Shown: positions 21,758-62,588 of the stretch, piece by piece
Numbering within the stretch: position 1 is the stretch's first letter
Layout of the letters: each line of letters starts with the position of its first letter
Assembly (NCBI GenBank): GCA_008632985.1
Contig: QPGO01000155.1
Location: forward strand, 124,001-188,000
DNA: 64,000 nt
Direction: 5' to 3'
DNA from: Psammoneis japonica
Taxonomy: Eukaryota
Program-made: the position numbers and the translations under genes
Notes under the pieces: generated by a model
Databases searched by the model: none
Told to the model about the DNA's origin: nothing
The model's input: only the letters and a program-made list of their open reading frames with translations

Positions 21758-21991
21758 AGTTGAGACACAGTCCCACAGCTGGGTGGGATGGATAAGACCT
21801 CGGAGGTTGGCAGCAATGTGAACAGCAACAGAGGTAAACAGACGCTTGTTCAAAGTCGTTGTCTAAAAATTATGACGAATGTCATTGCTTCTGTTTGAAT
21901 CAATTTTGTGATGAGCTGATCATTTCGAAGAGAAAATCTGAGTCTGGGTTGCAGTCGTGAGATGCGACCAGAATGACGTTGAGTCGCGACT
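21758..21991 (-). repeat. 3' LTR of element 1
   Basis: Direct repeat of 27933-28166, next to PPT. Confidence 0.95.
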
Positions 21992-22012
21992 CTCCCTCTC
22001 AACCGAGAGAGC

Positions 22013-25000
22013 TCACCAGCCCACAAGAGCCTTTCTAGCCGTGCGGAACGCATCGGTCCGTAGTCCCTTCGTGAACTGATCGGCCAGTTGCTCTGGAGTG
22101 CTGACAGGTTGGACATCGATCTCCAATTGTTCGACTTTAGTCCTAAACCAGTGGTGCGGGGTGCCGATGTGTTTGGTTCACGGAGACAACTTGGGCACAC
22201 GTGCGAACTTGAGGCACGCGGAGTTATCTTCACACACAACGGACGCAGGTGGGACATTCTGCGCTGCAGGCGAGTCATCGGTGCCTTGGGTTGTGAGCTC
22301 AAAAGCCTTGGAGTGAGTCGTGACAGGGTTTTGGCGGTCAGACTTTCCGAGTGCGTGGTGGTTGAGCTCCTTGAGAACTTCACGAACAGGGATGAGATCA
22401 CGCGTGGCTTGAGAAAGTGCGACACACTCCGCTTCCATGGTCGACAATGCTGCAAGAGTCTGCTGCTTGGACACCCAGACAAGCGGGCAGCCGGCGTGGC
22501 AGATGAGGCATCCAGTCCTGGACTTGACAGAAACTGGGTCTTGACCATCTTCCACACCAAATGACCCCGCGAAGTCAGAATCGACGTGACAATCAACTCA
22601 ATGATCTTGCGCAGGCTTGAGAATGAGACCTTCAGCAGCAGTTGCTTTGAGGCATCGGAGCATCCGCTTCACTGCAGCAGCATGGGACGCTCGGGGTGCA
22701 AACGAGAATCGAGCTGCTTGATGTGTGGCACATGCAATGTCTGGCCGGCTGTTCGCTGCCAAGTGCATCAACATTCCAACAACTGAGCGACAATCGTGGG
22801 GTTCATCAAAAGGCAGGCCGTCCGTGTCTGCACCAACAGCCGCAGGTAGAGCTGGAGCAGATGCTCCATTGCAATCCTGCATCTGTGCGGTGCGCAGGAC
22901 CTTGTCAATTAGACCGGGTTGAGTGAGTAGAAATCGACCCTCGGAGAGCTTTTCGATCTTGATGCCGAGAAAGTTGCCGACTTCTCCTTCGTCTCTAAGT
23001 TCAAATGCGTGGCGATGTTCATCGTCGGAGACTCCCAACTTGCGAATTTCGGCTTCTAGAGCTTCAGCTGAAGCTCCAGCAAAAACGGTGTCGTCGACGT
23101 GTGCCACACACATCGTGCCCTCTTTGAAACACAAACAGGGATCCATGGCTGAAGGTGCCCATCCGCGCTCGGTTAAACCAGCTCGTGACTTCTCGCAGAA
23201 GCCCTTGGGAGACTGTTTTAGGCCATGTGGTCCTTTCAAAAGTTTGAGAACCACATTGAGTCCCGACCTTGGTGCAAATCCCTTCGGCAGTGTTGTGTGA
23301 ACTTCCTCGGCGATGTCAGCTTGGCAAAAGGCTGTGGCATGGTCCACCTGACGTGCAGTCCATCCCTCCTTTAATGCCGCAGTGAGCATGAGTCGGATGC
23401 TGGACCATTGCACAACCGGCGCACAGGTTTCGAAGTGGTCGACTCCTTCTTTCTGTGAATCACCGCGGACGCAGTGTCGGGCCTCATGCTTGAGAGGGGT
23501 TCCATCTGGGAGTCTCTTGAGCTTCAGTGCCCATGTGCCTGGAAGTGCATTCACACGCGGCTGACGCTTGACTGCTTTCCAGGCTCGACAATGTGTGAGT
23601 GCGTTGACTTCAATTTTCATCGCCTTGATCCATTCGTCGGCGTCCGGACCTTTCAGAGCATTGTGTGACGAAGGCATGTCAGGGTCCTTGGTTTTCTTGC
23701 TAGCTGCGCAGGCTCGTGGATCGCCGATGTTGATGGCACCACTGTCCAAATCCGTCTCTCGGACACGAGGCTCGTCCCTTGGAATTGGGGGTGACATTGT
23801 AGATGTGTGTGGCATGAGAAACTGCCATGGGCCACAGGGAGCTGTCAATTCCCCCCTTCCAGTGGATTGATGCATGAAGCAACATCGCTCTCGCCATGTT
23901 GGAGATGCTGCGGATGCCCCGCTCTGTGACGCCGTTCTGATGATGGGCGTTGGTTCCACAAAAACGGAGACGTTGTTCATGTTCTCGCGTGTGTTGTGCA
24001 AAAGCGTTGGCCTTGAAAGCACCACCATCGGCAAGAAATTCTTGGATGATGACGCCGTGGTCCAAAGCATGTTTCTCAAATGCTTGCTTCGCTCGCATCG
24101 TCTCAACAGCGGAGAAACCCAGTTGGTGCTCGACCTGGACATAGCCAGAGGCGTGGTCGACAAAGACACAACCGCCCTTGAATTGCTTGGACGTGGCTTT
24201 GCCACATGAGTCGAAGGTGCGGCCCAAAAGGCGGGACTCAAAATGATCAACGCTGACAGCCTGACCCGGTCGAAGATGGTCAGCACGAAGGGCCCCGTCG
24301 CGTTCAGGGACTGTCGACTTGTGAGTAGATCCAAGGGAGTGTCTGTGACCTTTGGCACACTCGCGTGCCTCGCATCTTGGGTGGTCACACTTCGCTGCGG
24401 ACTTGAAACGGTTCGACAGGAACGGAGCTGCGCGGAGAAGTGCTTGGACGCGACCAAAGTTCAAATGGCCAAAACGGGCGTGCATTTCGAGAAGAAGCTT
24501 TTGGCCTGCCGTGAGGTTTTGATTCTCCTCGTTGAGGATCTGTAGATTCACTTGAGGAGCGGCAGATGCGCCCTTGGTCATCGACGCAACAGGCAAGTCG
24601 CTTGATGGATGACATGGCACGACCAACTTGCCTGTCCCATCAATGTGCAAACGGAAAGTGGTTTCATCGCCCTCACACTTCCCACGCACCCCCTTCTCTT
24701 CGTTGAAGAGGCATTGAGGCGACAGCAGGCACTGACGGGCTCCAGGAACGCAGCATGCCATGGTGTTCAGTTGGATGGCAGTGCCACTCGGCGTTGTGAA
24801 CACCCATGCAACCGGACCGGCACCCTGGATGGCAAGACCGTTGGCAATCCCATTGATCTGCAAGGGTTTCTTGGGAACAGTCATGGGCCCCGTAAAATCA
24901 TCTTTGTCGGGGGCAACAGCTAACGTGGCACCAGCATCCATGACGACCGTGAGAGCCTCGTCCGACAGACCGATGAGTGCCTGCGGATCGGATGCAAGGA

Positions 25001-27770
25001 GGTCGGCTTGAGATTGTCCGGTGAGCAGTCGGATGGTGGAGGCATTGTAGACGACTGGTCTGACACTTGCTTCCTCCAACAGTTCCACAGGATCTTGAAA
25101 ATGGGCAGTGTCCACGATGTGATTCGGCAGACAGAGCTCGTCAAACCGGAAGAAATCCGGGCTGAAGTCCTCAAGAGCGTCGAAGAAACATTTCTGGTCA
25201 TCGAGAGGTTCCAGTTCCTCACAGGTGTCAAAGAAGGCTGATTCGTCCATCGCATCAGACCGTTCAGCGACTTCTAAGCTCTCCCAGTGGGCCTTGAGAC
25301 GAGTGCTCAGTGCGTGTGACGGATGGCGCGCGACAAACTCGGTGAGCACTTGCGTGCCTTTGATCCTGTGACATTCGAACAGTGACCCCGTATCCAACAC
25401 TATCCGGTCATCTAGCTCTTCCACAACATGGTAGACTTGAGAGCTGGTGGTCGAAAAATGACTTGGTACGTTCGAGAATGGATGCTCGGGCTGTTGACCG
25501 GCGTAAACTGCTGACCATGCCATCACTGCAACGGACAGGACCATCCAGGAGGCTGGAAACCCGTGCAAAGTTGGGAGTTTGCGCTGGCGGCGTAGAGCTC
25601 GAGGGATGCATGGGATCGGAGCAAAGCAAAGATGCAGTGCCGTTTCCCAAAACATGGCGGCGAGCCAGAGTGTGAATGGCTTGACTCGTCCCAAGAGTGA
25701 GCGACGCAAAGTGGGCTCGTCTTTGACGTCCTCGTGACAATCATCCGCACCCAGGACCTCTGGATCGTAGAAATCGAAGCCACGACACGCAGCACACGGA
25801 GGTGAGTCGTAGCATGCGTCTTCAAAGTGTGCGTCATGTTCAAGGATGAGATCTAACTTTGTGTCGTCTGACAGCACATCTGTCAAATGTGCGGGAGCAT
25901 CATAGAACTCATCTGGATGCTTGACAGAGTACAGCTTCGAGGCCGGAAACAACTCAATAGCCGGTGGTTTGTTTTCAAAGGTGGAGAAAGCGTCGGAGCA
26001 TTCGCAGAAGTCATCGGCGTCTTCGGGAGTGACAGTCTCAACCACGATGGGAGACACGACTGGATCCACGACTGAGGTGAGTAGAGGTGGGCTCATTTTG
26101 TTGCAAACCACCTCAGCACTGATGACTGCATCGCTCTCCCTCTCGGCCAAAGAATCCGGAGTAACAACAATTGCAGTGGTGACAGGGGCGGAACAGAAAT
26201 CCGGGTCGGCAATGGCATCTGTAGCCGCGCACCACATTCCCGTGAAAACCAACTCGTTGGGGTCGGATTCGTCTCCCTCTGGTTCCTTGGCAGTCTGAGC
26301 GGGCGGACCCATGGGCACGCCACTGTCTGGATCAGCAACGGAAGACAAATTCCCGGCTGGGGTCTCCTTGGGAGGGCGCCTGTGGTCATCGGTGTGGTCC
26401 GCGGTAGAGTGCTTCTGGTGGATTCCAGGTTTGTCGGCACCCTTCGCCGTGCACGTGGCACACCACTTCCATTCCTTGCCATTCTTATCCTTCTTCGTTT
26501 CTCCGTCAAATTCAGTGCGCCAGGCAGCGATGGGTTGCCTCTTCTTCTTGGAAGGGTTGTCTGCAGGCGGCGGATTGGGAGGAGGATCGTCGCGCGGCGG
26601 TTTGGCGTTGCACTTTGGGCACGTCTTCTTGGTGCACCCCTCGAGACCGCAACCACAACAGTGCTTTGTCTTCCCAGGGTTGTCCGCAGTCGAAAGATTG
26701 CTCTCGGGTAGCTTGGCAACCAATGCAGGCCACTCCCCGTCCTTCACGAGCTCATTGTGTTGCTCCTGAATCCACGCAATGATGCCGACCGGTCCGAGTG
26801 TGTTGTGATCGCCATCGGACACGATGTCAGCAGGATTCTTGAGGCGGCACTTGCGTTCCACAGTCTTGACGTCGTCGAGCTTGTTGTAGACTTGCCGATT
26901 GAAGTGTTCAGAGGACGTAGAGGAGATCTTGTGGAGTGGCTTGGAGCTTGTGTTTGCCGGAAGCGCGCAGTCGGTCTGCACAATTTTCACGATGCGAAGA
27001 GCTTCGGCAGCAAAGTCCGTGCAATCCTCGCCGGGACAGTTGGCCAAACTGAGGTCTTCCAGCTGCTTCTCAGCCGTCTCAATGTCCATTGGAGCGCCAG
27101 TGTTGCAAGTGTCGAGAGCCATCATGAACAGAACAGATCCAGGGCAGTCTTGGCAGTCCGAGAGATGGTTGAACTTGGTCTCGATTTTTTCGCGAAAGGT
27201 GTTGGCGATTCTTGAGTGAACGAGAAGTTGAGAGAGCCCGATGTCGTCAAGCTCGATCTCGTTGTACTTGGTGTCATCGGCAGCTGCTTTCCTGGCCGTG
27301 TGCTCGTTCACGAGATCGGTCACAGTAAACTCGTGAAGATGGTCGAAGACACATTGAACCTTGTCGTCGCTGTTCTTGACATGGCAGAACGTCTGCTGAC
27401 CATGGGCTTCTGCTAGATCTCGAATGGTCTTGACGAAATGGCCCTTGTCAAGCTCGTTGATGGGACCGTCCGAAATCTCAAGTCAACCATTGAACTTGGA
27501 AGTCATTGCGGAAGCTTGTTGATCGCGGAGAGATCGTTCCATTGAGTCGAGAGCCTTGGGATGACGGCGCTGAGAGGCGAGTCGGCAGGTTCTGTTGTTG
27601 GATTGTTCGCAGCTGTTGTTGAGTTTGGAACCACCAATGTAAACCCCGTGGGTTGGGTGAATTCCACCACGTAACGGCTTGGTTGGAGCCGGAGGAGCGG
27701 TCGCCGCGGCGTTGGCGGCCATTGCGTCGGCAAACGCCTTCGCCAGAACAGCCGGATCGATGGTGGCCAT
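22013..27770 (-). pseudogene. gag-pol of element 1
   Basis: Gag from MATIDPAV (27770); zinc knuckle; protease MDAGAT; HARFGH; integrase VSVDH..FVDHASG..HHQNGVTER; RT ARHCVRGD, HGLKQSP, HVDD; RNaseH DSDFAG..SRTG, EDNS, ADQFTKGL. In-frame TGA at 27483, 22598 and 22178; deletion plus frameshift near 23775. Confidence 0.93.
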
Positions 27771-27932
27771 GACAGAGAGTGCAGTGTGAGAGGTTCTTGT
27801 TAGAGTGAAGACGAGAGAAGCGAGAGAGACTCAGCTATTTCCCGGGTTTGCTTCAAAATCAAAAACCGAAAGCGTCCGTGACGATGACTCGGTCAGGAGC
27901 TCTCGTCAACGCGCAAATTGGTCTCTGTGACC

Positions 27933-28166
27933 AGTTGAGGTGCAGTCCTGCAGCTGGGTAGGATGGACAAGACCTCGGAGGTTGGCAGCAATATGAACAG
28001 CAACAGAGGTAAACAGACGCTTGTTCAAAGTCGTTGTCTAAAAATTATGACGAATGTCGTTGCTTCTGTTTGAATCAATTTTGTGATGAGCTAATTGTTT
28101 CGAAGAGAAAATCTGAGTCTGGGTTGTAGTCGTGAGATGCGACCAGAATGACGTTGAGTCGTGACT
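27933..28166 (-). repeat. 5' LTR of element 1
   Basis: Direct repeat of 21758-21991; abuts a PBS-like ..ctctgtgacca on the + strand. Confidence 0.95.
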
Positions 28167-41183: not shown

Positions 41184-41425
41184 GTTTGGAATTTAAAACA
41201 AGAGTACGCAATAGAAGATTGAGGAGGTGGTGTGTGGAGAGTAGTCTAAGTAGTAGGTATTCACTGCACGACAACAAAAACAGAACGAGAACGCTTCGAC
41301 TGCGGGTGCCGCGCCCGATGCCGGTGCGCGATGCTCGGAAATTCCGGGCGGAGATGATCGGAGATCGGGCCTCGACGGACCCACAACGAAGACGTCACTG
41401 TCGGCAGTTTCGTTTCTATGGTTTC

Positions 41426-41539
41426 CATTGCAATCTGAAGCCTGAGAATATCTTGCTGACCGAGAAGTAGTCTCATTCGAGCAATGTCAAGTTAATTGCT
41501 TTCGGTTCGGCTTGCTGTGAGATCATTTTGGTGGATCGT
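41426..41539 (+). pseudogene. DYRK-like kinase fragment in frame with the start of an IMP1 remnant
   Basis: HCNLKPENILLTEK*SHSSNVKLIAFGSACC-EIILVDR. Confidence 0.65.
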
Positions 41540-41886
41540 TGTGGGAAAGTAGCCAGAATTCTAAGATTCGTCTGCACTTTCAATGATTAAAAGCTGTAAT
41601 TGCGATACAACAATCAATCAGTAACTTTATTGTACCAAAAGTTGAGAGGTGATAATCAGTGCGTTAGAAAGATTATGAGCAGTTTTTATGAGCAGATGCA
41701 GCTGCCATCTAAAGGAAACGCGAAGTTAAACGAGCGCGAAGCTAGGAACAAACATCGCATTCGTGACTCGGCTTCCGCGGGATTCGAGACTGAGCATCGC
41801 ACACGGGGTTCGAATCTTGGATCTCTGATTTGAATCGTGGAGGTCCGATGTTGTTGTAAAAACATGCAAATATGAATATTGTCACA
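41540..41886 (-). repeat. 3' LTR of element 2
   Basis: Direct repeat of 47759-48105. Confidence 0.97.
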
Positions 41887-41929
41887 CTCCCTTCAACAAT
41901 GTCGGGTGGAATGATGACTCGAAAACGTC

Positions 41930-44900
41930 TTACCACTTAAGGAGCGATTTCCTGTGTTCGACGAAGAGATTCTGTGGTAGAGGTTTGGTGAAAATGTCTG
42001 CAATCTGATCCGCCGTATCAATTGGTAGAATTGATATGAGACCTTTGCGAACATGGTCTTTAAAGTGGTGGAGAGTGAGGTTGAAGTGTTTTGTCCGAGG
42101 ACGCATCTTAGGCAATCTCGCGATCTCCAATGCTCCAGAATTGTCTTCAAAAGCCTTACAATGTACGACTGGTGTCTTGGAAGGGACATTATGACCGTGA
42201 TCCATAAATTCTTGAATGAGGTTCAAAATTGGGGATGGCGCTTCGAAGACTTTCCGAAAGAGCGATAAATTCAGCTTCAGTAGTGCTGAGCGCGATCTGA
42301 GTCTGTAGCTTGGACGTCCAGACAATCGGACATCCTGCATAGGTGATGACAAACCCAGTTCGAGATTTGGAAGTGCCGACGTCATTGGGTGCAGTCAGCT
42401 TATTCCAATTGCCCACAAAGTCCGCGTCGGCGTGAACTTCAAGGGACTTGTCCGTTGAGGGCTGTAGTATAATACCTTCAGTTCTGGTTGACCTTAGGTA
42501 CTTACAGAGCCATAGTACGGCTTCACCGTGAGAAACCTTGGGATCGGAAGAAAGCGTGCGACTTGGTGCACCGCGTAAGCGATATCCGGTCGAGTGCTCT
42601 TCTCCAGAAAATTGAGCTTGCCGATGATGGATCGGTAATGAAAGCTCCCTTGGAAAGCAGGCTCACTCATATGCCTGTGGAGGATCTTGGAGGAAGGAGC
42701 AGGAGTAGGCTTATCTGGTAGTCTCTTTGGAATATTGGCTATCTCCAGTATCTGATTGATAAGGTGAGGTTGGGTAAGTTTCATTCTGCCGTCTGGTAGT
42801 GTTTCGACGTTGACACCGAGATAGTCGTCCAGAGTGCCTTGATCATCAATATCAAAATTCTCATCTCTGATATCCTGTATCGCCTTGTCAATAGCAGACT
42901 TGTCAGGGGATGCAAAGATACCGTCATCGACATAATGAATGAAAATGACATTGCCACGAAAATACAGGCACTCATCAACCGCCGATTGTACGAAACCAAT
43001 CCTTAACAATCCATCACGTAAGTGTTTCTTGCCATACTCTCCCTGCTTGCTTTTGTCCATATAAGTTCTTGAGCAACTTCAGAACATGAGTCTTACCATT
43101 GCCACATTTTGTTTCAATTCCTGCAGGTAACTCCATGTACATATCATGTTCGATATCGGCATGCGGATACGCCAGAACGAAGTCGACTTGGCGTGTATGC
43201 CACTTCTTAAGAATGGCAATGATCAGTAGGAGCCGGATAGTGAACCAGAAGACCACGGCAGAGTAGGTCTGGAAGTAGTTGACAGCATGCTCTTGCTTTC
43301 CACCGTGCACATTAAGTCGGGACTTCCATTTGTAGACGGCTTGGGTCTTAATATCTCTTTTGCGCTTCATAGACCATACCGAAGGGAGAACATCAACATC
43401 GTCAGGTACGTCCTCTCTTGGAATGAGTATCCAATGTTTCCTTTCAATATGATCATTGACCTCCTTAACACAGGCCTTGATAAATTCGTCTCTGTCAGGT
43501 TCACGCATAGCCTGATCAAAGTACATGGTGTCGGGGTCCGAGCTCGCCAGAAAAGAGATAGGTGAGTCCATATCGTCCTGCAGTTTGTAATCATCCTCGT
43601 GCATCGCATCATAATGTGCCTCTGCCTCTGCATTGTAGGAGACAATGCCTTGAGCCCGTTGTAGTTGGCTCTCGCGCATCCTTTCGGTCGGGCGTCGTTG
43701 TCGGCCGGACCTACTGGTGCTGGGTTGACCCATAGTGCGCTGTGGCTCAGATGGTGCGTCAGAATCATCTGGAGGCGTGTATAGCATTTCATCATCCGGT
43801 TGGGCATTATCAAATGAGTCATCAGTGGCAGACGTATCAGTGGGGTGCAGCAGCTGAGACGGGACATCCGAATTCGGCTCAGGTGGTTCCGTTGTGGTAG
43901 GGACTGATCCCTCAACCGGTACGTCACTTGATTTCCCAAAGATGTTGAAAGTACTCCTTGTCATGAGTTGTCTGAAACCTGCAATGCCTTGCCATTGTGA
44001 GAATGTAGGAGGATTCCCAGCAAAAGGGCGAACGGTCTCAAAGAAGTCGTCAAATTGTACGTGAAATTGCGGCGATACGAGTCCGGTCTGCAAATTCAAA
44101 ACCAAGGTAACTGAACCTGCGTGTCTTGTTGATGGTCCCAAATTGATTCCTAACCTTGCCCTTGGGTCCCACTTAGGCAGCCTACCTCCTCCCTGCAACC
44201 GGTTGTGCAAGGCGTAGACGGGACAGCCGAAGGTATGGTGTTGTTTGAGATTAGGCTGGACCTTGACGGACGAGAAACGTTCCAGCGGAGAAGAGCCGTC
44301 CTCGTGATTCGGTAAGTGATTCTTGATCTCGTTTGAGTTCCTGAGAGCGCTTGGCCATAAGTTCAACTCAATAGCCGTTGGCCATCTCACTTTTGCATGC
44401 AGGAGTTGCTTCCGAGATTGCTCTTGGAGGTCCCTTATTCTTTTCTCCGCGATGCCGTTTTGGAAGTGGGCGTTGACCCCACAATAGGATATTGTTTGCT
44501 GTTGCTTCTTGACGTCTTGTATGAAAGCATTGTCAGCAAATCTTCCATTGTCGGCGTGGTAGTGTTGAATACGGACGTGCATCCGGCGTGCGAATGCCTC
44601 GAAAGCGTGCTTGGCTTCGAGCGTCTCGGCTGAGGTAAGTCCTTTCTGCAAATACATGTGTCCCAATCCGCTGAAATGATCAACAAAAATTGTCGCTGCT
44701 CGATACCTTTGTTTCGTAGGTCTCCCTTTGAGCTGTGGGATCAATCCAGGAGTAGGACTCTCGAGCTGGTCGACGGATACGGCTTCTCCAGGCGAAGTTG
44801 CCAAGTGGATTCGTCGGTTCCGCTTGGACTTGGAGCGCCATGGTCGTTTCGTCATGGCACCGTATAGGCAGCCGGCACATTTTGGGTTGTGTACCTTTGT

Positions 44901-46190
44901 AAGGCGTTTCGGTAGAATGCCTAGGGCGGCCAATGGCTTTATCATTTTGAATGACATGTGGCCCAGGCGGCAATGCCAACGCAACAGTTCACCCTGGTCA
45001 TCTGTGGCAGCAAGGGCGTCATCATTTGGTGTGATGTTGATGGGTTCCGGTAAGTCCTGCTGTACCTCCGGTGTCGTGAAATCCCTTAGGTTTTCCTCGT
45101 CTGAGTCTGAACCACTTGCTCCGTCTGTTGGCTCAAATGAGACAGGAGCATCCTCATCAGTGGTGTTGCGTGCGTCTTGCGTCTCGGAAGGACGTGTCTC
45201 GGATGGACTTCTGAAGACGTCTGTATCAATTGCAGCCTCGTCATCATTCGCAATGCTCTCGTCGTCTGGTGGTATGATGTGAGCTTGACAGGCCACGTGC
45301 TCGATAGTTTCGATGTCGGTTTGTTCTTCGACAGCGGCTGCAAAGGTCCGGCATTTGTTGGAACCGGGTGCGGAGCGCATCTTGGCGACATTGGAGTTGG
45401 CGGACCATGGAATCAGGCGATGGTGCTTGCGCTGATCCCACATCAGTGACAGTCCGTCGTCCCTAGTCCAAGATGCGGTTCCGTGAGGCTCTGGCGTGTG
45501 GTCATTAGCTTGCTGGCTCCATTGCTGCGGGCAGAGAAGACAATGAGGTAAGTCGGGTGCATGGAGTGCGTCTCGAATTTTGATGCTGTGCACTTGTCCC
45601 ATGTCGTCCTCAATTGCCCACTGCACTGTTCCTTCTCCCTCAGCACGCAAGCAGCCCTTGACACCGAGTGCCATTTTGTTGGATTTGCGAAGAGGACCAA
45701 CGAAGTGTGCCTCGTCGTTGGACATGGTGCAGGAAGAATGCGAGTCGACGCCGATTGCGAATGAGCCCGAATCGTAAGTGGGCTCCGTTCGCTCGGGACG
45801 GTGTGGTGTGGTTGAGTTGCACGCTCCAACCGTCTTGTGTCGTGCAATGACATGGTGAGCCTTCTTGGTGGCCACTCTGGAGCGGTGACCTGGCCTCGTC
45901 GACGCATGACACCGTGCGCAGCACCTCGTCGTTGGCCGTCGCTGGCAAGTCTTAACTCGTCTTGTGCCTGGTTCAGCCAGGACATGTGAGATGACCCACT
46001 CACCCAGCGTCATCACGGCATGTGACAGGCGCTTGCACTTTTCTGAAGGAAGGGACAGCATCATGAACAGCAGCATGATCCAGATCGGTGCTGCACATTT
46101 CATGACGCCAGCGACCGCCATCAGGAGCACTGACACAGTGACGGCCATCTGCAAGGACAGCAGCAGTGTCAGAGTGAACCTGCAGAGCAG
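41930..46190 (-). CDS. pol of element 2 (PR-IN-RT-RNaseH) with frameshifts in RT/RH
   Basis: VDSHSS protease, WHCRLGH, VSVDQ..FVDHFS..HFQNGIAEK, FGCPVY, KSRLNVHG, LYGQKQAG, YVDD, TRPDIAYAVHQ, SRTG, EDNSG, IADIFTKPL. Confidence 0.93.
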
Positions 46191-47684
46191 TCACTCCACT
46201 TCGTTTAGGATGGTAGAGATGGCACTTGCGAAGGAGACTTTCTTGTCCGACGTGTCTGTGGATGGAGCAGACTGTTGCTTGCGGAGTCTGCAGCCTTGGT
46301 TGCCCGGATCATCAGGCAAGTGCATGACCCAAGCAGTGTGACATGGGCACCAGTGATGGTCGCGATTGTTGACGCGCTTGTGACAGCACTGATGGCCGTT
46401 CACTGTCTTCTTGGGAGTGTCCTCCTCAGGCGGGACTTTCTTCCAGGCTTCGTCCGCTTTCTGTCTCTGACGTGGAGTGGTCTTGGTCTTCCTTGACCGT
46501 GTGCTTCTTTCCTTGGTTGAGCCAGCCTTGGCCTTCAAAGCTTCAGACAGCTGAAGGTTCTGATCCTTGATGGAGTCTGCCTTGGCTGCAAGCGCGACGA
46601 TTTGCTCTTCAGCCGGTGACAGTGCTCCCCACTTCTTCTCGCGCTTGAGGTCAGCACATTTGTTCAGTGCCAACGTCATGATTTGCGTCGGCGTGAATTC
46701 CTCGCCGTCGTCACACCTGTCCTTGTGCAACATGATGCACTTGACGAACACTTCGTCAGCAGCTGCGGCGCATCCTTTGAATGGATTCATGATGAGGTCG
46801 TCGCACTGCTCTCCTCTAGCTTGGAGTCTGTCAACGTTGAGCTTGGCGCACTTGTTGAACTCTTCGATGTCCGAGTTGACAGCTGCCGCGCAGGTGTCCA
46901 GGCTTGACAAATTCTCGCGGAAGCAGTCAGCGGCAGAGCGTGTGTCAACGACGGCCTTTTGCGCAAGTGGCTTGAAGAACAGTGTGCCGATTTGATTTCC
47001 ATTGATCGTGCAGGAATCTGTCTCAGCCAACATCTTGTCTCTTGCTTCCTCCGCAAGGGATTGAGAGATCGCCTCGGCCATCTGCACATTGTTCTGTGCT
47101 TGTCGCACAGGTGGATTCGCGAAGGCATTCGCGTGGGTTCTTGCATCCTGTGGAGTGAGCAGTCCGCACTCGGAGATGAGATCTCGTGGAGCTCCATTTG
47201 CGTCGGGAATGGCAAGCATGTCTCCTGCCCCTGTTTTCCATCCTGCCTCGGCAGCTCGTTGACTGAGTGTCTCACAAAACCGTTTGAGACCTTCTGAATC
47301 GCCGTTGAACTCGTGCGGCAGCGGTGCAGTGGCGGCGTTCCAAAGCTTGAGGCCTTGCGATGTGCCGCAGTCAATGAAGTTGTTGGGACGGTGTTGACCT
47401 GGAGTCAACGCGAAGATCGGCAGTGGCGGCACAGGTGCCAATGGTGGTCCACCTGGCGGGGCTCCACCTGGTGGGACTCCACCTCCGCCTCCACCTCCTC
47501 CGCCACCTCCTCCTGGAGGCACACCGGGAGGAACGACTGGGGGAGGCACAGGAGCAACTAGAGCGGCTGCAGGAGCAGGTGCTGTTGCCGGAGCAGCAGC
47601 AGTGGCAGGAGCTGCAGCGGGTGCAGCAGCGGGAGCTGCAACAGAGGCAGCCAGAGCAGCCGCGGTTCGTGTCTGTGTGACCAT
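46191..47684 (-). CDS. gag of element 2 (497 aa, no Tyr)
   Basis: Ala/Pro/Gly-rich N-terminus, FALTPG, WC..H..W..H..C knuckle; lies between 5' LTR and pol. Confidence 0.88.
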   Translation of the reverse strand: MVTQTRTAAALAASVAAPAAAPAAAPATAAAPATAPAPAAALVAPVPPPVVPPGVPPGGGGGGGGGGGGVPPGGAPPGGPPLAPVPPLPIFALTPGQHRPNNFIDCGTSQGLKLWNAATAPLPHEFNGDSEGLKRFCETLSQRAAEAGWKTGAGDMLAIPDANGAPRDLISECGLLTPQDARTHANAFANPPVRQAQNNVQMAEAISQSLAEEARDKMLAETDSCTINGNQIGTLFFKPLAQKAVVDTRSAADCFRENLSSLDTCAAAVNSDIEEFNKCAKLNVDRLQARGEQCDDLIMNPFKGCAAAADEVFVKCIMLHKDRCDDGEEFTPTQIMTLALNKCADLKREKKWGALSPAEEQIVALAAKADSIKDQNLQLSEALKAKAGSTKERSTRSRKTKTTPRQRQKADEAWKKVPPEEDTPKKTVNGHQCCHKRVNNRDHHWCPCHTAWVMHLPDDPGNQGCRLRKQQSAPSTDTSDKKVSFASAISTILNEVE

Positions 47685-47758
47685 AGCAACAGCAGAGTAA
47701 AGCAGAATCGAGAGCTTAAGATCGATTGACTCAACTTGTAGATTGCGCAGAGGAAGCG

Positions 47759-48105
47759 TGTGGGAAAGCAGCCAGAACTCTAAGATTCGTCTGCACTTTC
47801 AGCGGCCAAAAGCTGCAATTGCGATGCAACAATCAATCAGTAACTTTATTGTGCCAAAAGTTGAGAGGTGATAATCAGTGCGTTAGAAAGATTATGAGCA
47901 GTTTTTATGAGCAGATGCAGCTGCCATCTAAAGGAAACGCGAAGTTAAACGAGCGCGAAGCTAGGAACAAACATCGCATTCGTGACTCGGCTTCCGCGGG
48001 ATTCGAGACTGAGCATCGCACACGGGGTTCGAATCTTGGATCTCTGATTTGAATCGTGGAGGTCCGATGTTGTTGTAAAAACATGCAAATATGAATATTG
48101 TCACA
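47759..48105 (-). repeat. 5' LTR of element 2
   Basis: Direct repeat of 41540-41886 with 10 A:T>G:C differences. Confidence 0.97.
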
Positions 48106-48110
48106 ATCGT

Positions 48111-48684
48111 TTGACACCGCGTCTCTTTGGCCTGCAAGGAGGACACGATGGATCCAAGCGTGCCGAGTATGCTAGACAATTACAAGAAGATTATCAAAAA
48201 CAAGAGCGACAAAAACAAGAACAAAAGGCAAAAAGTTTGCGAAGAAGACCAACTGAACATCATGAATGTTTGTCAAGTGTACTACAGGACTTCATGTCGG
48301 TGATGTGGTGGTGGTACAACATCCAGACCGTTCGGGAACGGTGTGCAAGCGTATCTTGGGTCTGCCTGGGGATGTTGTGGTCCAACCCGCTTCCAATTTT
48401 GCTTTTCAAAATTCATCTCGAGGAGGCTTGCTCGTTATTCCGGATGGACACCTGTGGATAGAAGGTGATAACTCCATGAACTCGTCGGATTCTCGGAATT
48501 ATGGACCTATTCCATCCCGCATCCCTGCGAGTGCATCGTTTTATTTAAGGAGGGCCTCAGCCATGTTCATGGACTAATATGCAGCTGCGCTGCCTTTGTT
48601 TCATCGTAGGGGGAGCACGATCTTGCCTGCTGGATACGAAGGAGAAGTCATCCTTAAACACGCCGAAGAGAAGCCATCACAATA
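48111..48684 (+). pseudogene. Mitochondrial inner membrane peptidase IMP1-like (S26), 3' part, interrupted by element 2
   Basis: GDVVV..CKRILGLPGD..IPDGHLWIEGDN..SSDSRNYGPIP; continues EIILVDR across the TSD; catalytic-Ser box not seen. Confidence 0.8.
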
Positions 48685-49820: not shown

Positions 49821-51780
49821 ATGTCCAAACAAACAATGAGATACACTCTTTCTACCCGTACCGTTCCAATGGCGAGCATGGGGCGTGCTCGCATGATCGT
49901 CGGTGACAAACGCAGCAGGCTGTTGACGCAAGACGAGGTTTCCCGCGACATCAAGCTTTCGACAACCGGACGTCCTTCGAAACGGCTCCAATGGCAGTCA
50001 TCGGTTCAGTTGAGCGTCATTCCAAGCAAGCACGACACTTCCAATGTGTACTTACTTGACGAATTGACGAGTGTTAGTGCATCCTCAACAAGATCCGAGC
50101 CTGAGTCACTCCAAGGCATTTCGAAACCATCTCGTCTGGAAGTTCAGCCGGAGCTTTCGGATTGGTCGCCGATATACTTGGGTCCAGACGAGTCATCGCT
50201 ACTCCAAAGTCGGAATGAGCACTCCCAGCACGATCACTTTGCAAGTGTTGTGCAACAAATTGCTGACCAGTCTTCGAGCGAATGCCTCTTTGTCGATCCG
50301 AGGTCTGGCCACAAGAGGTTTCGGCACACAAACAGCACGGAACTTGGTTCGCGTAAACGTCGTCGTACTTCCTACAAGCAAGATGATGAGGTCACCCATG
50401 TTGGTTCTAGTCACAAGGAGAGCTGTGACAACGGAAACAACCATCTGACATTCGGCTGGGGTCGCCCAAAGCCTTGTTCATGTGCGCACCATACTTGCTT
50501 TCCTCGCACGCGTCGAGACCTCAGTCAAAAGACTATCCGTGCCCCAAGGAAACGTCGAATGGATGAGCACTTAAAGCCTGATCATTCATTTTATTTCATG
50601 GAGAAGTTGCCGGTTCAAGAATCTGCGGATGGACGTTTCATCGACAGCTTCTCCGGCGCAAAACGGAAGCATCAGCGCAGAATGTTGGGTCCGCGGAAGC
50701 GACGCCTAATTATACGCGATCAAGATGACGCATGTGTTGACATTGGCCTCAGTTCAACTTCTGAGGGAAGGAGTCAGAGAGTAAGTCGCCTCTTTCATTT
50801 GCACTATCACTCATTTCCACGTGCGTTGACAATTGACTGAAACGTGTTTCTACTTCTTCTTTACTCTGCATTAACAGCTTGTACACGAGAAGTCCATTCA
50901 ACACGAGACGTCTTCCATTGCATCTGCTGCAATAGAGATTCCTCGCGATGCGGGTGTTTCAGATGAGGATCAAGTCCAACAGGTGGCGGCACCTGCAGTG
51001 GTGTGGACGGTGCAAGATGGCCCTTCCAAATTCGATACATATGGTCAAGAACAACGCAATGAAGTACATGAAGTGTTGGTCGATCAAGAACAATCGGAAC
51101 GGGAGTACTTGCCTGTTTCCGTCAAGGACGATCCCATCCACGAGACGGCGTCAGCAACGGTGGCACCTTCGGAGCGCGAGATTCCACCCGACGATGATGC
51201 TTCCATTCCAAATCCGCACGATGGCGTAGCTGAAGCGTTGGGAGAGGAACGAGAAGAAGAAAGACACGTCCCAGTACGGGAATCCCTCATTACGGATCAC
51301 CGTGCTACATATAGCGACGATCCGATCCAGGAGATTCCATCCGGAGATGATGCTTCCATTCCGAATCCACACGATGCCGTGGCTGAAGCATTGGTAGAGG
51401 AACAAGAAGGAGAAAGACGCGTCCAAGTACGGGAATCCCTCATGACGGATCACCGTGCTTCTGAAAGCGACGATCCTATCCACCAGACGGCGTCAGCAGC
51501 GGTGGTACCTTCCACACAGATCCCTTCCAACGACGGTGATGTGAGTCTTCCAGACCAGCACGTTGGTGTAGGGGGGTTGTTGGTCGAGACGGAACAGGCG
51601 GAAGAAGAAAACGTTCAAGCACCTGCATCCCTCATTACGGATGGTAGTGCTTCTATCATTCCAAGGCGGTCTGCTCGGCTTAGAGCAGCTTTGGGAAGCG
51701 TGTACATCCTCTCTACTGACGGGAGAACTCTTCGAAGGTCCGCTAGAATCTTGAACCGGCGAAATGGCGTCTTGCGGTAG
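49821..51780 (+). CDS. Hypothetical disordered protein with internal ~50-aa repeat and C-terminal RRSARL/RRSARI motifs
   Basis: ORFs 49584-50840 and 50983-51780, probable intron ~50781-50877; EIP..DDASIPNPHD.VAEAL..RESL.TDHRA twice. Confidence 0.55.
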
Positions 51781-53290: not shown

Positions 53291-54819
53291 CGATTTTTTA
53301 GAGCGGGACCAGCAATCGTCGAGATACTACGTACAGGCATCTCATAGGTTTCCTGCTCCACCAGAAATTACACCAAAATTGACCAGCAGAGATTCGTGAC
53401 GCAAGGTGGTTGATGGGCTTGGATCTCAAGCTCCTACAAGAGATGTCAAACTGATGCTCGTCATGACTCATGGAGGATGCAACGGTAAAACTTCATGACA
53501 GTGCCATCGCGTGGGATCCAACATGGCCTCGTGAACTGGACGTCAACGTAGGACGGTGCATTTCTCTGAACGACATTCTTGAGTGAAGCGAGCCGGTGAG
53601 TTTAGCATCGTTGCACCCAGTTCGCTGCTCGTAATCCCTGCGGGAGAACTCAAGGGTGGCACATTCTGGATCTTCTGCTTCGACCTGGAGGCCTGAAGGA
53701 CATATTTTTTTCTTGACGCTAAAAGATCATCTCGACTCGTGCAACCGGCAGAGAGCCTTTGCGGGATCGACAAAATACACGAAAGAACTGCACTGGCGAG
53801 CGACAGAAAACAGCTTTTCGGCAACCTCAAACCGATGCTCTTCTTTTGATTTTTGATCAAGTTCTGCAGTTGTACTTCTGTTTCTAAAACCAACATGGAC
53901 TTAATATTCTAAGACCAAACATGGCTGCTATCCTTCACGACTTGTTGACTCATCGGTACGCACGCCATTGTGCACTCCGCATTTTTTTTGGGCAGGATGT
54001 CGTCAGTCCGTCGCTTCTCCGTCAATTTGAACAATCGCTGTGGTGCGTGGTGCACAGGCTTGTGCGTGGTGCACGACGCGTGCTGTGGTTACGGAGAACG
54101 GTCGCGCATTGTCTGTCGGTGGTTGTAGGAACAGTTGCAGTTGACTAGATTGTAAAGAACAACATGGCCAATCAAACCAGGTTGCTTTCTCTAGGGCTGA
54201 GTGCTTTTCTGGGGGCTGAAAAGCTCTGCAGCCAATCACCCGACTTTTCGAAAAACTCACTCCAAAGAACCCCTCATCTTGTTGGGATGCCAACAATCTG
54301 GCGGGTCTGTGACCGCCTGCTGCAATCCGGGCATTTCCTGACTGTAATCCCAGACAAGTGTCTCTCATTGAGTCAGGTTCTTTTTCATTTCAGTTCAGAA
54401 CCAATTTGGTTTACAGGCTCCTTGTTTCTAAATTGCACCCTGGAGCCTGCTTTGAACAGCGGCCATGTTCTTGTGCCTCTGCAACCCCGCGTTTGGCCTT
54501 TCTTGACAGTCACTGTGTTTGGTCGCTCCTTCATTTCATCTCATGCTGCATGTGATGCAACATCAGCACCTGAAATGTCCTTCTAAATTGCATCCATTTG
54601 CAGCCCAACAAACAGCATGGTGAGCTTCTCATTGTCACAATGAAGCAATTGCAGTCAAAGCAAAACCATGAGACTTGGCAGCCTGCGCACCTTTGCTTCC
54701 TGTTGCAACATTCCTGAGGTCTGAAAGCTTGGGGAAGAATCTCTGCAGCTGTTGGTTTCTCTCTCAAATCATCTGCCAAGGGAAGGCCAAAGGATGCCAT
54801 TGTGAACAAGTGTCTGGAT

Positions 54820-55096
54820 GACTTGCCTGGCATCAAACAAATGCGATGGACCTTTGCCTGGCATCAAATGAACACAAGGGACCTTTGCTTGGCATCAAAC
54901 AGCTGCTGAATGCAGCGGACCTTTGCTTGGTGTCAAACAAATGCAACCTGCCTGTGCTCAGCATTGAAGAATGAATGTGATGTGCCTTTGCTCAGGATTG
55001 AATGAACATGGTGCACCTTTGCTGGGGATCAAATGAGTGCCTCACTTTGCTCAGCATCAAATGAATGTGACAGATCTTTGCTCAGAGTCAAATGAG
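54820..55096. repeat. Degenerate ~30-bp tandem repeat, about 9 units
   Basis: Recurring cctttgc(c/t)(tg/ca)gcatcaaa core. Confidence 0.7.
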
Positions 55097-58000
55097 TTGA
55101 ATTTGAATTTCACAATGGAGCATCACAAACGCACTTTGCAGTCACTTGGCTCTTCATCTCATCCTTGTTCTTTTCACTTCAAGAACTCTAAAATCAGCAC
55201 TTTGTCAAACCCAGACTGCATCAGCATGACACATTGTTTTAAGTTTCTGTTTGCTCTGACTTTTCTGGATCACTGAAACTCAGGCAGGAAGCTTTGGAAG
55301 ACACTGGACAGAATGGGGCTGGGCTTCCGTTTTCAAAAAACAGCGAAAGCACTTGCATGCTCTTTTGTCTGCTGTGGCTTTGACTGTTTCAATTTGCCTG
55401 TCACCAATCAATTGTTCAACACAACAATTGCCGGCAAGTGCCAGCGCCCCGTGGACTTTTGACAACAGAATCAAGCAACTTCAATCTTTGAGCTCACAGC
55501 TCTGCCCTCTCCAGCAGGGAGCACTGCAGCTTGAGAAACCTGCTGCATCAGCTGCACACACCAACAAAAGCAAAGCAGGAGTGGCCCTGCACTCTCTGAA
55601 GCAGTTGCTGAACAATCTCGCCACTGGGTCCCCACAGGAGCTGTTTCTGTCATCCAAAGAACCATTCATTGTGCACGACTTCATGTTCTCAAGTGGAGTT
55701 TCAAGATTTTGCAAAGTTTGCTGTCACATCCAGCACAAAATGTCAACCAAAATGTGTGCAAACTGTCTCTTTCCTCATGCATTGCCAGCTCTCAAACTCG
55801 TTGGTGTGATGGAGCATTTTGACATGGTTGCCCCATTTCGCCCACTGGAAGAACCAACATTTCACACTCCTTTGTTGCTTGTTTGTCTCAAAGATGTGCT
55901 CCACTTTTGCAAAAAAATGATCATCATCAAGTCCTTCCCTGATGAGGGCTTTGATTGCTCCCTTGCTGAACTTCATGTTGGTCCTGCATTTGACACAACA
56001 CAGAGCTTGTTCACAAAAAGCAGTTTTGTGGCTTTGATTGTGAGCACTTGTCAGTCATCAGTGCCACATCATCTCAATGGGCAACAGCAGGCACTGCAGG
56101 GTGCTTTGCCACCTCCGGGCACAAGCGCACCCTTGTCATCTTGGTGCCTCAGTGATGAAGGATGAAATTTCATCTCAGGCTGAAAGCTCAACTTGGTGCT
56201 GGTCTTCTTGGAGTGTGAGAACTTGTGGCTTTTGTCATCTCTGCTGCTGGCAGCAACCACAACTTTGGCCTTGGTCTCCAGGCATTTGGCATTCATCAAC
56301 TGTGTGAGGCCAGTTTCTGCAAGCACTGAACGCAGCACTTGCAACTCTTTGGAGTGAATGTTGAACCCACAAGCCAGTGTTCCCAAAAAGGAATCCTGCC
56401 AGGCTTTGTGTGCCTCTTGACACACTTGTCTTGGTTGGTGGCAGTGGCTGTGGTGTGATGAAAGTTGTCAATGTGAACTTCAATCTTGCGGTGCACAACA
56501 GGTGCCCAGTGATGCCAAATGACAAACCAAATGATTCCATCCAAAGAGCAAGATGAAGCTGAAAGGTGAGAGATCAGCAATGGCGAAACTTTTCCCGGTG
56601 GTGCATTGAGGGGGTTGCCCATGGTGCATGAAAGATGCAAAGGCTTCAGACTTTCTTCTTATCAGCTGCTCACAGCAGTTGTGAAACAGCAGAAAATGAA
56701 AACTTGCAAGTGTGTGTGGCAAGAGTGAGCACCACATGATGATGGGGCATTGGCAGACAGGGCAACAAGCAGTGGCCTCTGCCAGCCAGTGGCTGTGAAG
56801 CAGCAGCACAGCACTCACCAAGGAGGGGACACTGCATCAGTTGTGGGGCTGCCCAGCAGCAGGGCCATCTGTGTGGCACCATCAAAGCAGCAGCAAAAAT
56901 CACCAGGCATCCCCACATGTTCCACCAACAAGTCCATCTGAGAGCAGGTGTTTGTCACAACATCTCAGTGACCATGTCAACATCAGACCATTTGAAGGCC
57001 AACAGCTGGGTTTTTGATGACTCAGTCAGGTCAAGGAGGACAAAGCAGTCTGTTGGGACAAATGCATGCTTTCTCTGCTTCCACCTTCTCAGCTTGCTTT
57101 TGCAGCCCAAGAGCTCAGGCTCACAGCACAGCAAGAAAATGAGGCCACTTCAGATGCAAGGAGTTGTTGAGGCAGAGGGGCAATGTCAACAAAAAAGAGC
57201 TCTGGGGTGTCATGTTTTGGCGCAGGCTTGCACTGCCACTGCACAAGCTGTGCTGCTGCCTTTGAAAGTCAAAACTGTTGAAACAGCAGCAATTTTGGGC
57301 AATCTGGGAGCAGCCATGATCACAGTTGGCATCAACGGCTTTTCAGTTGCTTGGCATGACATCACTTGAAAGTTGCAGTGTGCTCACTGTCATGACAACA
57401 AAGGCAAAGCTTTCCTTGGCTGCACATGGTGTGTGCACCTTGCTTGGGCACAACAAACATTGCTGGCAATTGTCAACCTCACAAGGAGCACACATGCCCT
57501 GCATTGAGAGGCACCCCCAGTCCTTTGCAAGGGTGCAGTTTTGTGGCTTGTGTTCATTTGCTGTGCAGCTGTTGCTCTTGCACTCATGCATCAGTCTTCA
57601 TCACAGAGCCAACAGGCTTCAGGCTTTCATGCCTGTTGTGGCCTGATGCTTGCAGCAACAGTTGTTTCCTTTGCTGAAATGGGGTGGTTGGTGCTGCACC
57701 ACTGCACTTCAATTCAACGGCATCAAAATGAGAGACAAATCAACATCTGAGGCCGTTTGCCCAGTTTTTGATCACTTGCACTAAAAGGGTGTCATTTGCT
57801 CTCAACTCAAACACCACTTTCTCATCTGCTGAGCTGCTGTTTGTGTGTTGGTGCAGCTGGGCTGGCTGCATGTGCTGTCAAGCCAATTTTCTGCCTCAAT
57901 GGCAAGCTCTTCTTTTTCCCATTGCTTGCCAGTCAGACTGGAAAATTTGAGAACAACAGCCACCTTTGGCACATCTCCATCAACTGGAGGGGGGCAAGAC

Positions 58001-58668
58001 AGGAAGCATCGCCGCTTTTTTCACTGTCCCAAGAACTGGTGAGATGGTTGTGACAGAGAAGAAGTGCCCATTTGATGGCAGGCACATGCTGCTTTGCCTT
58101 CAGCACACATCTGCTGGGCTGCATTTTTTTCTGGCAATGTTGGCACACTTTCAAGGGCAGCAACATCTGCTCTGCCAATGAAGGCCCCCAGCACCTTCTA
58201 AAAAGGCAGCTCTCAAACATGCACAATCTTTGCTGCATCAAGCATTTTGGGTGGCTTGGTGGAGGCAAACCAGCTGCAAAACAAAAATGGCTCAGAGCAT
58301 TGCCAACTGCAAAAGAGCCTCAAATGCACAAAACTTTTTGTTGTCAAGCTTTTTTGTTGAATCCCAACTGCTTTTGTTCTTTTCAGAATGAAGTCCAGTG
58401 TGCACATCTCTGCACTTTGTTGCCATGCCAACAACGTCCAATGTTGGCACCATCACGGCTCACACACTGCCTCTTTGCAAAGGCATCATCACAAGCAGTG
58501 GTGCTGCAGAGTGTTTGCATGATGTCCTCTGTCTGGAAGTCTCTGTGCTGCTGTGCACAAGGAGCCATGTCTGTGGACAATTTGCAAAAGTCGTGCAGAT
58601 CAGGGCACATGTGCTGTGCTCTCATGGATCTGAAGACAGCTCTTGGTGGCACCAATGACCCCCCCCCC

Positions 58669-58865
58669 NNNNNNNNNNNNNNNNNNNNNNNNNNNNNNNN
58701 NNNNNNNNNNNNNNNNNNNNNNNNNNNNNNNNNNNNNNNNNNNNNNNNNNNNNNNNNNNNNNNNNNNNNNNNNNNNNNNNNNNNNNNNNNNNNNNNNNNN
58801 NNNNNNNNNNNNNNNNNNNNNNNNNNNNNNNNNNNNNNNNNNNNNNNNNNNNNNNNNNNNNNNNN
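58669..58865. other. Assembly gap
   Basis: Run of N. Confidence 1.
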
Positions 58866-61800: not shown

Positions 61801-62517
61801 TTTTTGTTGCTTCTTTTCTCATGTTTGATCATTTTAAAGTGCTTGAGCAGTGTGAACAATCTTTAAAAGGTGGTCATTTTTCCTGAAAACAAAGTGACAG
61901 GAACAAGCTGCTGTGTGGCTGCCACTGGTTTTGCTGCCTCTTGGAGCCATTTTTTTTGTCTCTTCTGCTGCATTTGGCTGTTTTTAACAAGAAATGTCAG
62001 CATTTTTTACAGTGCAACAAGGAGCTCAGATGCAAAAAGTGACTTTCTAACTGAAGTCATTTGGACAGAACAATCAGGAGAGCTGAGTTTTGCTTTTTTT
62101 GGTGCACACCATTGGCTGTCAGAAAGACCAAGTGGTGGTTCGCTGACCTGTGTGGGAGTCTTGTGGGTGATCTGCATGCTGGCATTGAAAAAAGTTTGTT
62201 GACTGTGAAGCAACTGTGCAATGTGAAAGACAGCAGAAGAGGTGACAACAAAATGTTGACAAATTTCAATGCTTGGAAAAGAAGTTTTGCCTCAGACAAG
62301 TGAAGCAAAATGGCCACAACATCTGGACATTGCCAATGTTTTTCATCTGGCTTGCAACATTGGACACTTGTTGCACTTGCCCACGGCATTTTGGTTGTCA
62401 TGCACCACCAAAGCTGAGTGCAAAATCTCTCTTTTTTGTTTGCACAAAAAAAATTGATGTCATCCATGACAGCACAATGCAAAAAATGTGCAAGTGCATG
62501 AGTCACCAAGACACTCT

Positions 62518-62588
62518 CCTGTTGTTGTTGTTGTTGTTGTTGTTGTTGATGTTGATGATGTTGATGATGTTGATGATGACGATGATGT
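62518..62588. repeat. (GTT)n/(GAT)n microsatellite
   Basis: Direct reading. Confidence 0.9.

Follow-up and report, generated by a model that had tools for sequence, protein, structure and literature searches.

The two long terminal repeats (LTRs) of Element 2, a Ty1/copia LTR retrotransposon on the minus strand of the 64-kb stretch of DNA analyzed here (hereafter the window), differ at 10 positions. All ten differences are transitions, with A or T in the 3′ LTR and G or C in the 5′ LTR, and they are packed into 85 bp beside the internal region. We favor, with little better than even confidence, the explanation that a host process directed at TpA dinucleotides and converting A:T to G:C produced these changes in the 5′ LTR after integration. 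This process is most likely, by analogy, the TpA-specific hypermutation reported from integrated foreign DNA of Bigelowiella natans.

Organization of Element 2

Element 2 is bounded by a 5-bp target-site duplication, and its LTRs, which read TGTGGG...GTCACA, have TG..CA termini. The features used below are the following (coordinates are those of the window).

41535..41539, no strand: left target-site duplication, ATCGT
41540..41886, minus strand: LTR A, the 3′ LTR, 347 bp, with the A/T letter at 10/10 variable sites
41550..41634, no strand: counterpart of the variable tract in the 3′ LTR, A/T kept at all 10 sites, the outermost end of Element 2
41887..41894, minus strand: polypurine-tract-like purine-rich stretch as read from the sequence, immediately preceding the 3′ LTR on the sense strand, where it reads GAAGGGAG
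41930..43078, minus strand: remainder of the reverse transcriptase (RT)/RNase H in three frames, whose breaks match three 1-nt indels relative to the family contigs
43017..46190, minus strand: protease-integrase-RT frame, 1058 aa
46191..47690, minus strand: gag frame, about 499-500 aa from Met, without Tyr and with 5 TpA against ~65 expected
47759..48105, minus strand: LTR B, the 5′ LTR, 347 bp, with the G/C letter at 10/10 variable sites
47769..47853, no strand: 85-bp variable tract of the 5′ LTR, LTR sense positions 253-337, with 5 TpA-type and 5 ApT-type differences
47845..47850, minus strand: AATAAA, a likely polyadenylation signal, sense positions 256-261 of the LTR (3′ LTR counterpart at 41626-41631)
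48106..48110, no strand: right target-site duplication, ATCGT

The 1058-aa frame matches the Pfam families gag_pre-integrs (aa 393-444), SH3_retrovirus (645-715), and RVT_2 (927-1058), the last running on into the next frame. The integrase thus lies upstream of an RVT_2-type RT, as in Ty1/copia. Since gag, protease/integrase, and RT follow one another on the minus strand, the LTR starting at 47759 is the 5′ LTR, in agreement with the assignment of the G/C-rich copy in the original prediction. The position of the AATAAA at sense 256-261 suggests that the variable tract probably corresponds to the end of R plus U5 of the 5′ LTR, adjoining the leader and the primer-binding side. The U3 part of both LTRs (41790-41830 and 48009-48049) contains a tRNA T-arm-like stretch, GGGGTTCGAATC, on the plus strand and therefore antisense to the element.

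Gene order (gag, integrase, RVT_2), TG..CA termini, and a 5-bp target duplication are shared with Ty1/copia elements (Pseudoviridae) of aquatic protists. Unlike these, Element 2 has a best relative that is 64% identical, and no TGG-starting tRNA-type primer-binding site was seen beside the 5′ LTR on direct reading of the sequence; the leader begins CGCTTCCTCTGCGC. The 64% identity, found among 5.8 billion proteins, holds over the integrase-RT part, and the closest proteins are encoded by aquatic metagenome contigs. The family to which Element 2 belongs therefore appears to be absent from the public collections searched. Relative to nearly all family contigs, Element 2 carries 1-nt indels at 42231, 42550, and 43025. 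As these coincide with the frame changes in the RT/RNase H region, either this copy is broken there or the assembly contains indel errors.

Ten one-directional differences between the LTRs

The LTRs were aligned with MAFFT without gaps, giving exactly 10 mismatches and 337 identical positions. LTR A carries T at 41550, 41559, 41584, 41587, 41588, and 41597, and A at 41583, 41586, 41607, and 41634. Ordered by coordinate, LTR B reads C, C, G, C, G, C, C, C, G, and G at the corresponding sites (47769-47853). Both the count and the single direction announced in the original prediction were recovered (two-sided binomial p = 0.002 for 10/10), as was its equal division between five TpA and five ApT sites when LTR A is taken as the reference. 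Two ApT dinucleotides are changed at both bases, from AT to GC, in the LTR B tract. Written on the plus strand, six differences are T>C and four A>G, and the two types are interleaved.

The clustering beside the internal region, also claimed at the outset, is highly significant. In 200,000 draws of 10 random sites in 347 bp for each background, the probability of a span of 85 bp or less was 2e-5 for all positions, 1e-5 for A/T positions, and 3e-5 for A/T positions within TA or AT dinucleotides. Inside the tract, 5 of 16 adenines in TpA context and 5 of 16 in ApT context are changed, compared with none of the 36 other A/T positions; in the rest of the LTR the corresponding counts are 0/20, 0/35, and 0/77. 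Outside the first 100 bp of the LTR, 17 CpG and 10 TpA are all unchanged between the copies. With these 10, the unhit TpA comprise 3 within the tract and 4 in the adjoining leader. Direct-repeat searches and self-BLAST identified no further copy of this LTR in the window.

Two other lines were considered and discarded. Decay of 5-methylcytosine at CpG does not fit, as a single one of the 10 sites lies in a CpG and the 17 CpG of the remaining LTR are the same in both copies. RNA structure was rejected as evidence: the G/C version folds like random A:T>G:C derivatives, and apparent compensatory pairs (sense 253/303 and 280/290) amount to one per predicted structure, a number that ~54% of randomly drawn sets of sites also attain. 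For the A/T version the folding energy is −22.5 kcal/mol, against a mean of −17.05 (sd 3.0) for random G:C>A:T derivatives of the G/C version, and 5.3% of 300 such derivatives reach this energy.

TpA depletion across the window

Dinucleotide odds ratios (rho) were computed over the whole window. Host DNA has a rho(TpA) of 0.47 overall, mostly 0.5-0.7 per 2-kb step, and several zones fall far lower: 0.16 at 14001-16000, 0.08 in the gag of Element 2, 0.05-0.08 at ~54300-64000, and 0.18 in a second element:

21758..28166, minus strand: Element 1, a second copia element, with LTRs at 21758-21991 and 27933-28166

In every TpA-poor zone, CpA/TpG is raised to 1.3-1.9. The depletion of TpA is equal at all three codon-position pairs, and it is therefore not an effect of codon usage.

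Within Element 2, TpA declines toward the 5′ part. The observed/expected ratio is ~0.75 at 41540-43700, ~0.5 at 43740-45000, and 0.1-0.3 at 45140-46300; at 46340-47540 there are 0-1 TpA per 200 bp, where 7-10 are expected, and the ratio rises again through the leader into the 5′ LTR.

The two TpA-poor zones outside the copia elements differ in their CpG content. Region 14001-16000 has normal CpG and 1-8 TpA per 500 bp, compared with 15-23 in neighboring DNA. It contains three overlapping frames of 236-315 aa, none with a Pfam match, and may be another hypermutated foreign fragment. Region 54300-64000 consists of ~10 kb of complex, non-repetitive sequence nearly devoid of both TpA and CpG (rho(CpG) 0.18-0.27, CpA/TpG 1.7-1.85, ApT 0.72-0.76, GpC 1.35-1.38). 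Its reading frames gave no Pfam match at the curated cut-off.

Direction of the TpA changes inside Element 2

We used two independent references to polarize the changes. The Pol frame was aligned with 14 metagenome homologs of 43-57% identity, a Tyr being considered conserved when present in at least 70% of them. At the 19 conserved Tyr columns, Element 2 has Y at 12, H at 4, C at 2, and S at 1; conversely, only 1 of 31 conserved Cys/His columns has become Tyr. Replacement by H or C concerns 4 of 6 columns in the N-terminal half and 2 of 13 in the C-terminal half, parallel to the TpA gradient. The four Y>H and two Y>C losses show that both strands were affected. At the codon level, 433 of 508 conserved columns are unchanged, 26 need at least 2 changes, 29 a transversion, and 20 a single transition. 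The last class is evenly divided between 10 A:T>G:C and 10 G:C>A:T replacements, which indicates that the bias is specific to TpA and not general. TpA is the context of 6 of the 10 A:T>G:C replacements, each of them in a Tyr codon, and ApT is the context of none.

The second reference came from contigs of three runs (X1-X3) of one public sample, aligned to 41300-48350. The family of Element 2 is large, high-copy, and diverse: 1159 X1 contigs match the element, 261 at 99% identity or more, 372 at 95-99%, 373 at 90-95%, and 153 below 90%, and the summed contig depth reaches ~2600-3000 on the LTR compared with ~78 on the right flank. Counted by places, family variation comprises 159 A>G, 196 C>T, 211 G>A, and 196 T>C, with 11-26 for each transversion class. 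Forty of the 897 variant positions were listed, each with 100% support in at least one run. Among these 40, the window has CA or TG where the family has TA in 22 cases, and the reverse was never observed. Four others (2 dinucleotides) oppose CA to TG, four are of CpG type, and ten are of other types. Four of these ten are ApT transitions: the window keeps AT at 41583 and 45674, and it has GT where the others have AT at 43845 and 45423. With the family letter at 45352, conserved column 280 again reads as a Tyr codon, and at 46579, 47020, and 47152, for example, every other contig has retained TA.

Internal sites of Element 2 thus display the direction of the TpA process. As both the Tyr columns of the outgroup proteins and the 22:0 ratio among the listed family positions agree, the sequence comparisons indicate that the change ran from TA to CA/TG, on both strands, in this copy or its lineage.

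The same contigs bear on the variable tract. At 41583, an ApT site, all six family contigs carry G (depth 3051.8/3051.8), which is the 5′ LTR letter, and none carries A. Either the 3′ LTR is derived at this position, or the family was hit in parallel, or the letter was copied from a family member; any of these could account for it. At the other nine LTR sites the family contigs would carry the A/T letters, judging from which 40 of the 897 variant positions are listed; if they do so at the neighboring sites, the A/T version is not private to the 3′ LTR. The family consensus, which in the original prediction would have told against the proposed polarity had it been GC-rich, therefore agrees with the G/C version at 41583 and apparently not at the nine others, as far as the listed positions tell. 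A search of metagenome contigs with a degenerate LTR pattern allowing R/Y at the five central sites returned 0 matches. Of 79 related metagenome loci, 21 have terminal direct repeats, mostly perfect overlaps of 100-130 bp typical of assemblers. Alignment of 10 of the repeat pairs revealed transitions together with transversions, and in none of them a cluster running in one direction; as these loci belong to other organisms and are consensus assemblies, they are uninformative about the genome that carries Element 2.

A second LTR pair with TpA-derived differences

In the older Element 1, TpA hits after integration are seen directly in both LTRs. Over 234 aligned bp these LTRs differ by 14 transitions and no transversion, and 11 of the 14 lie at TpA-derived dinucleotides. 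Shared TA is found 3 times, TA opposed to CA or TG 5 times, CA opposed to TG 3 times, shared CG 9 times, and CG opposed to CA or TG 2 times. The three CA-versus-TG sites imply that the two LTRs were hit at the same ancestral dinucleotide. We rejected an origin of the CA/TG differences by CpG decay: for the CA/TG pairs, a TpA origin has a log-likelihood of −17.39 compared with −22.80 for a CpG origin, and rho(CpG) is 0.89, that is, not depleted. The RT frame of Element 1 has no Tyr among 621 residues and reads HVDD where copia RTs have YxDD.

To the right of Element 1 the depletion of TpA ends at ~28166. To the left it persists for ~600 bp past the aligned LTR (21158-21757; 1, 0, and 4 TpA per 200 bp versus 10-15 expected), so either Element 1 extends past the aligned repeat or the flank, too, is reached by the process.

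Comparison with known mutational systems

Two known systems produce clustered or context-dependent transitions in mobile elements. Repeat-induced point mutation (RIP) of fungi converts C to T at CpA, thereby creating TpA, on both strands of repeated or foreign DNA after integration. The changes described here resemble RIP in being dinucleotide-context transitions that affect both strands of repeated or foreign DNA after integration. Their direction is opposite, with TpA destroyed and CpA/TpG created; RIP leaves an excess of TpA and a deficit of CpA/TpG, and we rejected it on the reverse composition of the window. ADAR-type hyperediting of retroviral or retrotransposon RNA generates clusters of A>G changes, favoring adenines preceded by U/T. 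Editing of this kind affects one strand and is copied into both LTRs; in Element 2, the changes on the two strands are interleaved and one LTR alone is altered. These two features speak against RNA editing and also against RT error, both of which had been dismissed in the original prediction.

The closest counterpart is found in mutation-accumulation lines of B. natans, in which the mutation rate of two integrated viral regions exceeds that of the remaining genome ~1000-fold (Mettrop et al., bioRxiv 10.64898/2026.01.13.699255). According to this preprint, A>G or T>C changes account for 230 of 231 mutations in the viral insertions, and every one of the 230 falls on TpA; reverse-transcriptase and DDE domains are overrepresented among coding sequences depleted in TpA; and an ADAT2-like adenine deaminase is proposed as the enzyme. 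An enzyme of that type may be responsible here as well. The two cases share changes that are almost exclusively A>G/T>C, hit both strands, and turn TpA into TpG or CpA, together with a long-term depletion of TpA and enrichment of CpA/TpG clustered on foreign or TE-like DNA, as far as the B. natans data are given in the preprint's main text. They differ in three respects from what that text reports. The record here is in LTR retrotransposons, including an LTR pair that dates the hits as post-integration, instead of viral insertions; half of the Element 2 LTR hits (5/10) are at ApT, two as AT>GC doubles, in one 85-bp cluster, instead of at TpA alone; and region 54300-64000 loses CpG alongside TpA. 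The terms LTR, retrotransposon, ApT, and CpG do not occur in the preprint's main text, and a full-text literature search found no further paper on TpA-specific hypermutation.

Origin of the variable tract

Under the explanation that we favor, Element 2 would have integrated with two LTRs of the A/T type. A host process acting on double-stranded foreign or repeated DNA, or on both of its strands, and mainly at TpA (TA>CA or TG), would then have turned A:T into G:C over 85 bp at the R-U5 end of the 5′ LTR. The 3′ LTR would have kept the original letters, and the 3′ third of the element would have been spared. The tract would thus lie on the border of the TpA-depleted zone of this copy, and the same process would have eroded TpA in the 5′ two-thirds of Element 2, in the whole of Element 1, and in the two other zones of the window. 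As both strands are hit in the LTR and in Pol, the target would be DNA rather than one RNA strand.

Hypermutation after integration is the most economical account of the single direction, the restriction to transitions, the involvement of both strands, the 10:0 asymmetry between the LTRs, and the identity of the rest of the LTR. It leaves unexplained the five ApT hits, the tightness of the cluster, and the family G at 41583. Hits at ApT make up 5 of the 10 sites, including the two AT>GC doubles, whereas the published hits, in the preprint's main text, are at TpA alone. They have a partial echo in the four ApT-type positions among the 40 listed of 897 and in the lowered ApT of 0.72-0.76 and raised GpC of 1.35-1.38 in the most mutated zone, 54300-64000; if the hypermutation reading is right, they would belong to the same event. 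The burst is also very local, since the nearby TpA in the tract, the leader, and the remaining LTR were not hit. The A:T>G:C polarity in the 5′ LTR, which the original prediction had assumed, fits both the polarized TpA process on Element 2 and the B. natans results as presented in the preprint's main text, although the family letter at 41583 disagrees; the 5′ LTR would accordingly be the changed copy. The timing proposed there, a burst after insertion, is plausible and has independent backing, but a single de novo burst is inseparable from a copied patch of ~100 bp.

Such a patch would have arisen if the R-U5 end of one LTR, ~100 bp, had been overwritten from another family member, by ectopic gene conversion, by conversion with strong-stop cDNA, or through a heteroduplex formed from two different co-packaged RNAs. 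The G/C letters would still stem from the TpA process and would have been acquired elsewhere. The diversity of the family, with its 1159 X1 contigs, shows that donors exist, the G of the 5′ LTR at 41583 is common to 6/6 family contigs, the tract matches the R-U5 strong-stop unit in size and position, and the 5 of 10 non-TpA sites need no new specificity if they were copied. The donor haplotype itself was seen neither among the 40 of 897 variant positions listed nor in the metagenome LTR pattern scan (0 matches). The 10/10 direction (p = 0.002) moreover requires a GC-richer donor or biased repair, and GC-biased repair of G.T and A.C mismatches might supply it. The central cluster of five changes (GCGGCC) has no local template: its sole match with up to 3 mismatches within Element 2 is the site itself, and the whole window contains 4 such matches versus 2.5 expected. 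On balance we regard a copied patch as a serious but less probable rival. An assembly or polishing artefact, in which reads of more mutated family copies were folded into one LTR, is very unlikely in our view. The high copy number of the family (depth ~2600-3000 on the LTR versus ~78 on the right flank), the scaffolding of the window (N run at 58669-58865), the recovery of just 52% of the sampled words of the stretch in the contigs of the best run, the occurrence of the 41583 A in no contig, and the three 1-nt indels private to this copy would all be compatible with it. A polishing error would, however, shift both LTRs toward the family majority and not create a one-way 85-bp patch in one of them, the remainder of the two LTRs is identical, and contigs drop rare variants by construction, so that missing words are expected anyway.

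The reverse polarity, with both LTRs of G/C type at integration and a subsequent G:C>A:T burst (RIP, APOBEC, or 5mC) at the outer end of the 3′ LTR, is most improbable. Read as C>T, 8 of the 10 sites have G at −1 (8/20 GCN changed versus 2/23 in other contexts), five are CpA, and the family letter at 41583 is G. Nevertheless, TpA is depleted in the copia elements, the opposite of a RIP-like footprint, and both the outgroup and the family comparisons give TA>CA/TG as the dominant direction. CpG is the context of just one of the 10 sites, the 17 CpG of the remaining LTR being unchanged, and at the nine sites other than 41583 the family letters would be A/T, to judge by the 40 of 897 positions listed. 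The A/T version also folds slightly better than 95% of the random G:C>A:T derivatives, which is weakly against this polarity.

A more specific form of hypermutation after integration would proceed in both-strand bursts of ~100 bp that start from the transcription start in the 5′ LTR and fade over a few kb, with ApT as a second target (AT>GC). We consider this version unlikely. If it were true, it would imply an adenine deaminase that works on duplex DNA under the guidance of RNA or transcription, and LTR pairs would provide a built-in clock and polarity marker for the process.

Significance for LTR retrotransposons and observations nearby

A genome defense by A:T>G:C changes at TpA has so far been reported in one preprint, whose main text describes it for viral insertions, and the window shows the same footprint in two copia retrotransposons. 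Element 2 would thus add another case to the one on record, this time in LTR retrotransposons and with a clock built in. Possible new features are the ApT doubles, the local bursts, the 5′ gradient, and a zone without CpG as well as TpA.

The two members of an LTR pair start out identical when the element integrates, and the pair is therefore a natural experiment on the hits that follow. The hits recorded in this way would be post-integration, on both strands, and regional, strong in the 5′ part and lacking in the 3′ LTR, and they can be tightly clustered. Should the ApT component and an onset close to the transcription start prove true genome-wide, they would constrain targeting, substrate, and processivity, and LTR pairs would measure rate and specificity without mutation-accumulation lines. 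In practice, LTR divergence would be unusable as an insertion clock in such genomes.

Several further observations were made in and around Element 2. Over 43017-47058, contigs of run X2, which is from the same sample and probably RNA, skip at least 13 segments of 70-113 nt. In 10 of the 15 listed, the skipped segments have GT..AG ends on the plus strand, that is, antisense to the copia genes. The pattern resembles antisense transcripts, spliced at many points, from a family copy with fewer mutations. The insertion site of Element 2 (41400-41539) encodes a protein-kinase-like fragment (HCNLKPENILLTEK, followed by a stop and then ..IAFGSACCE). This DNA is itself repeated in the genome, as several contigs diverge before 41426 and behind 41520. 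Finally, tandem repeats of 153 nt (87% alike) and related units of 57-64 nt occupy 51114-51654, inside a frame at 50875-51780.
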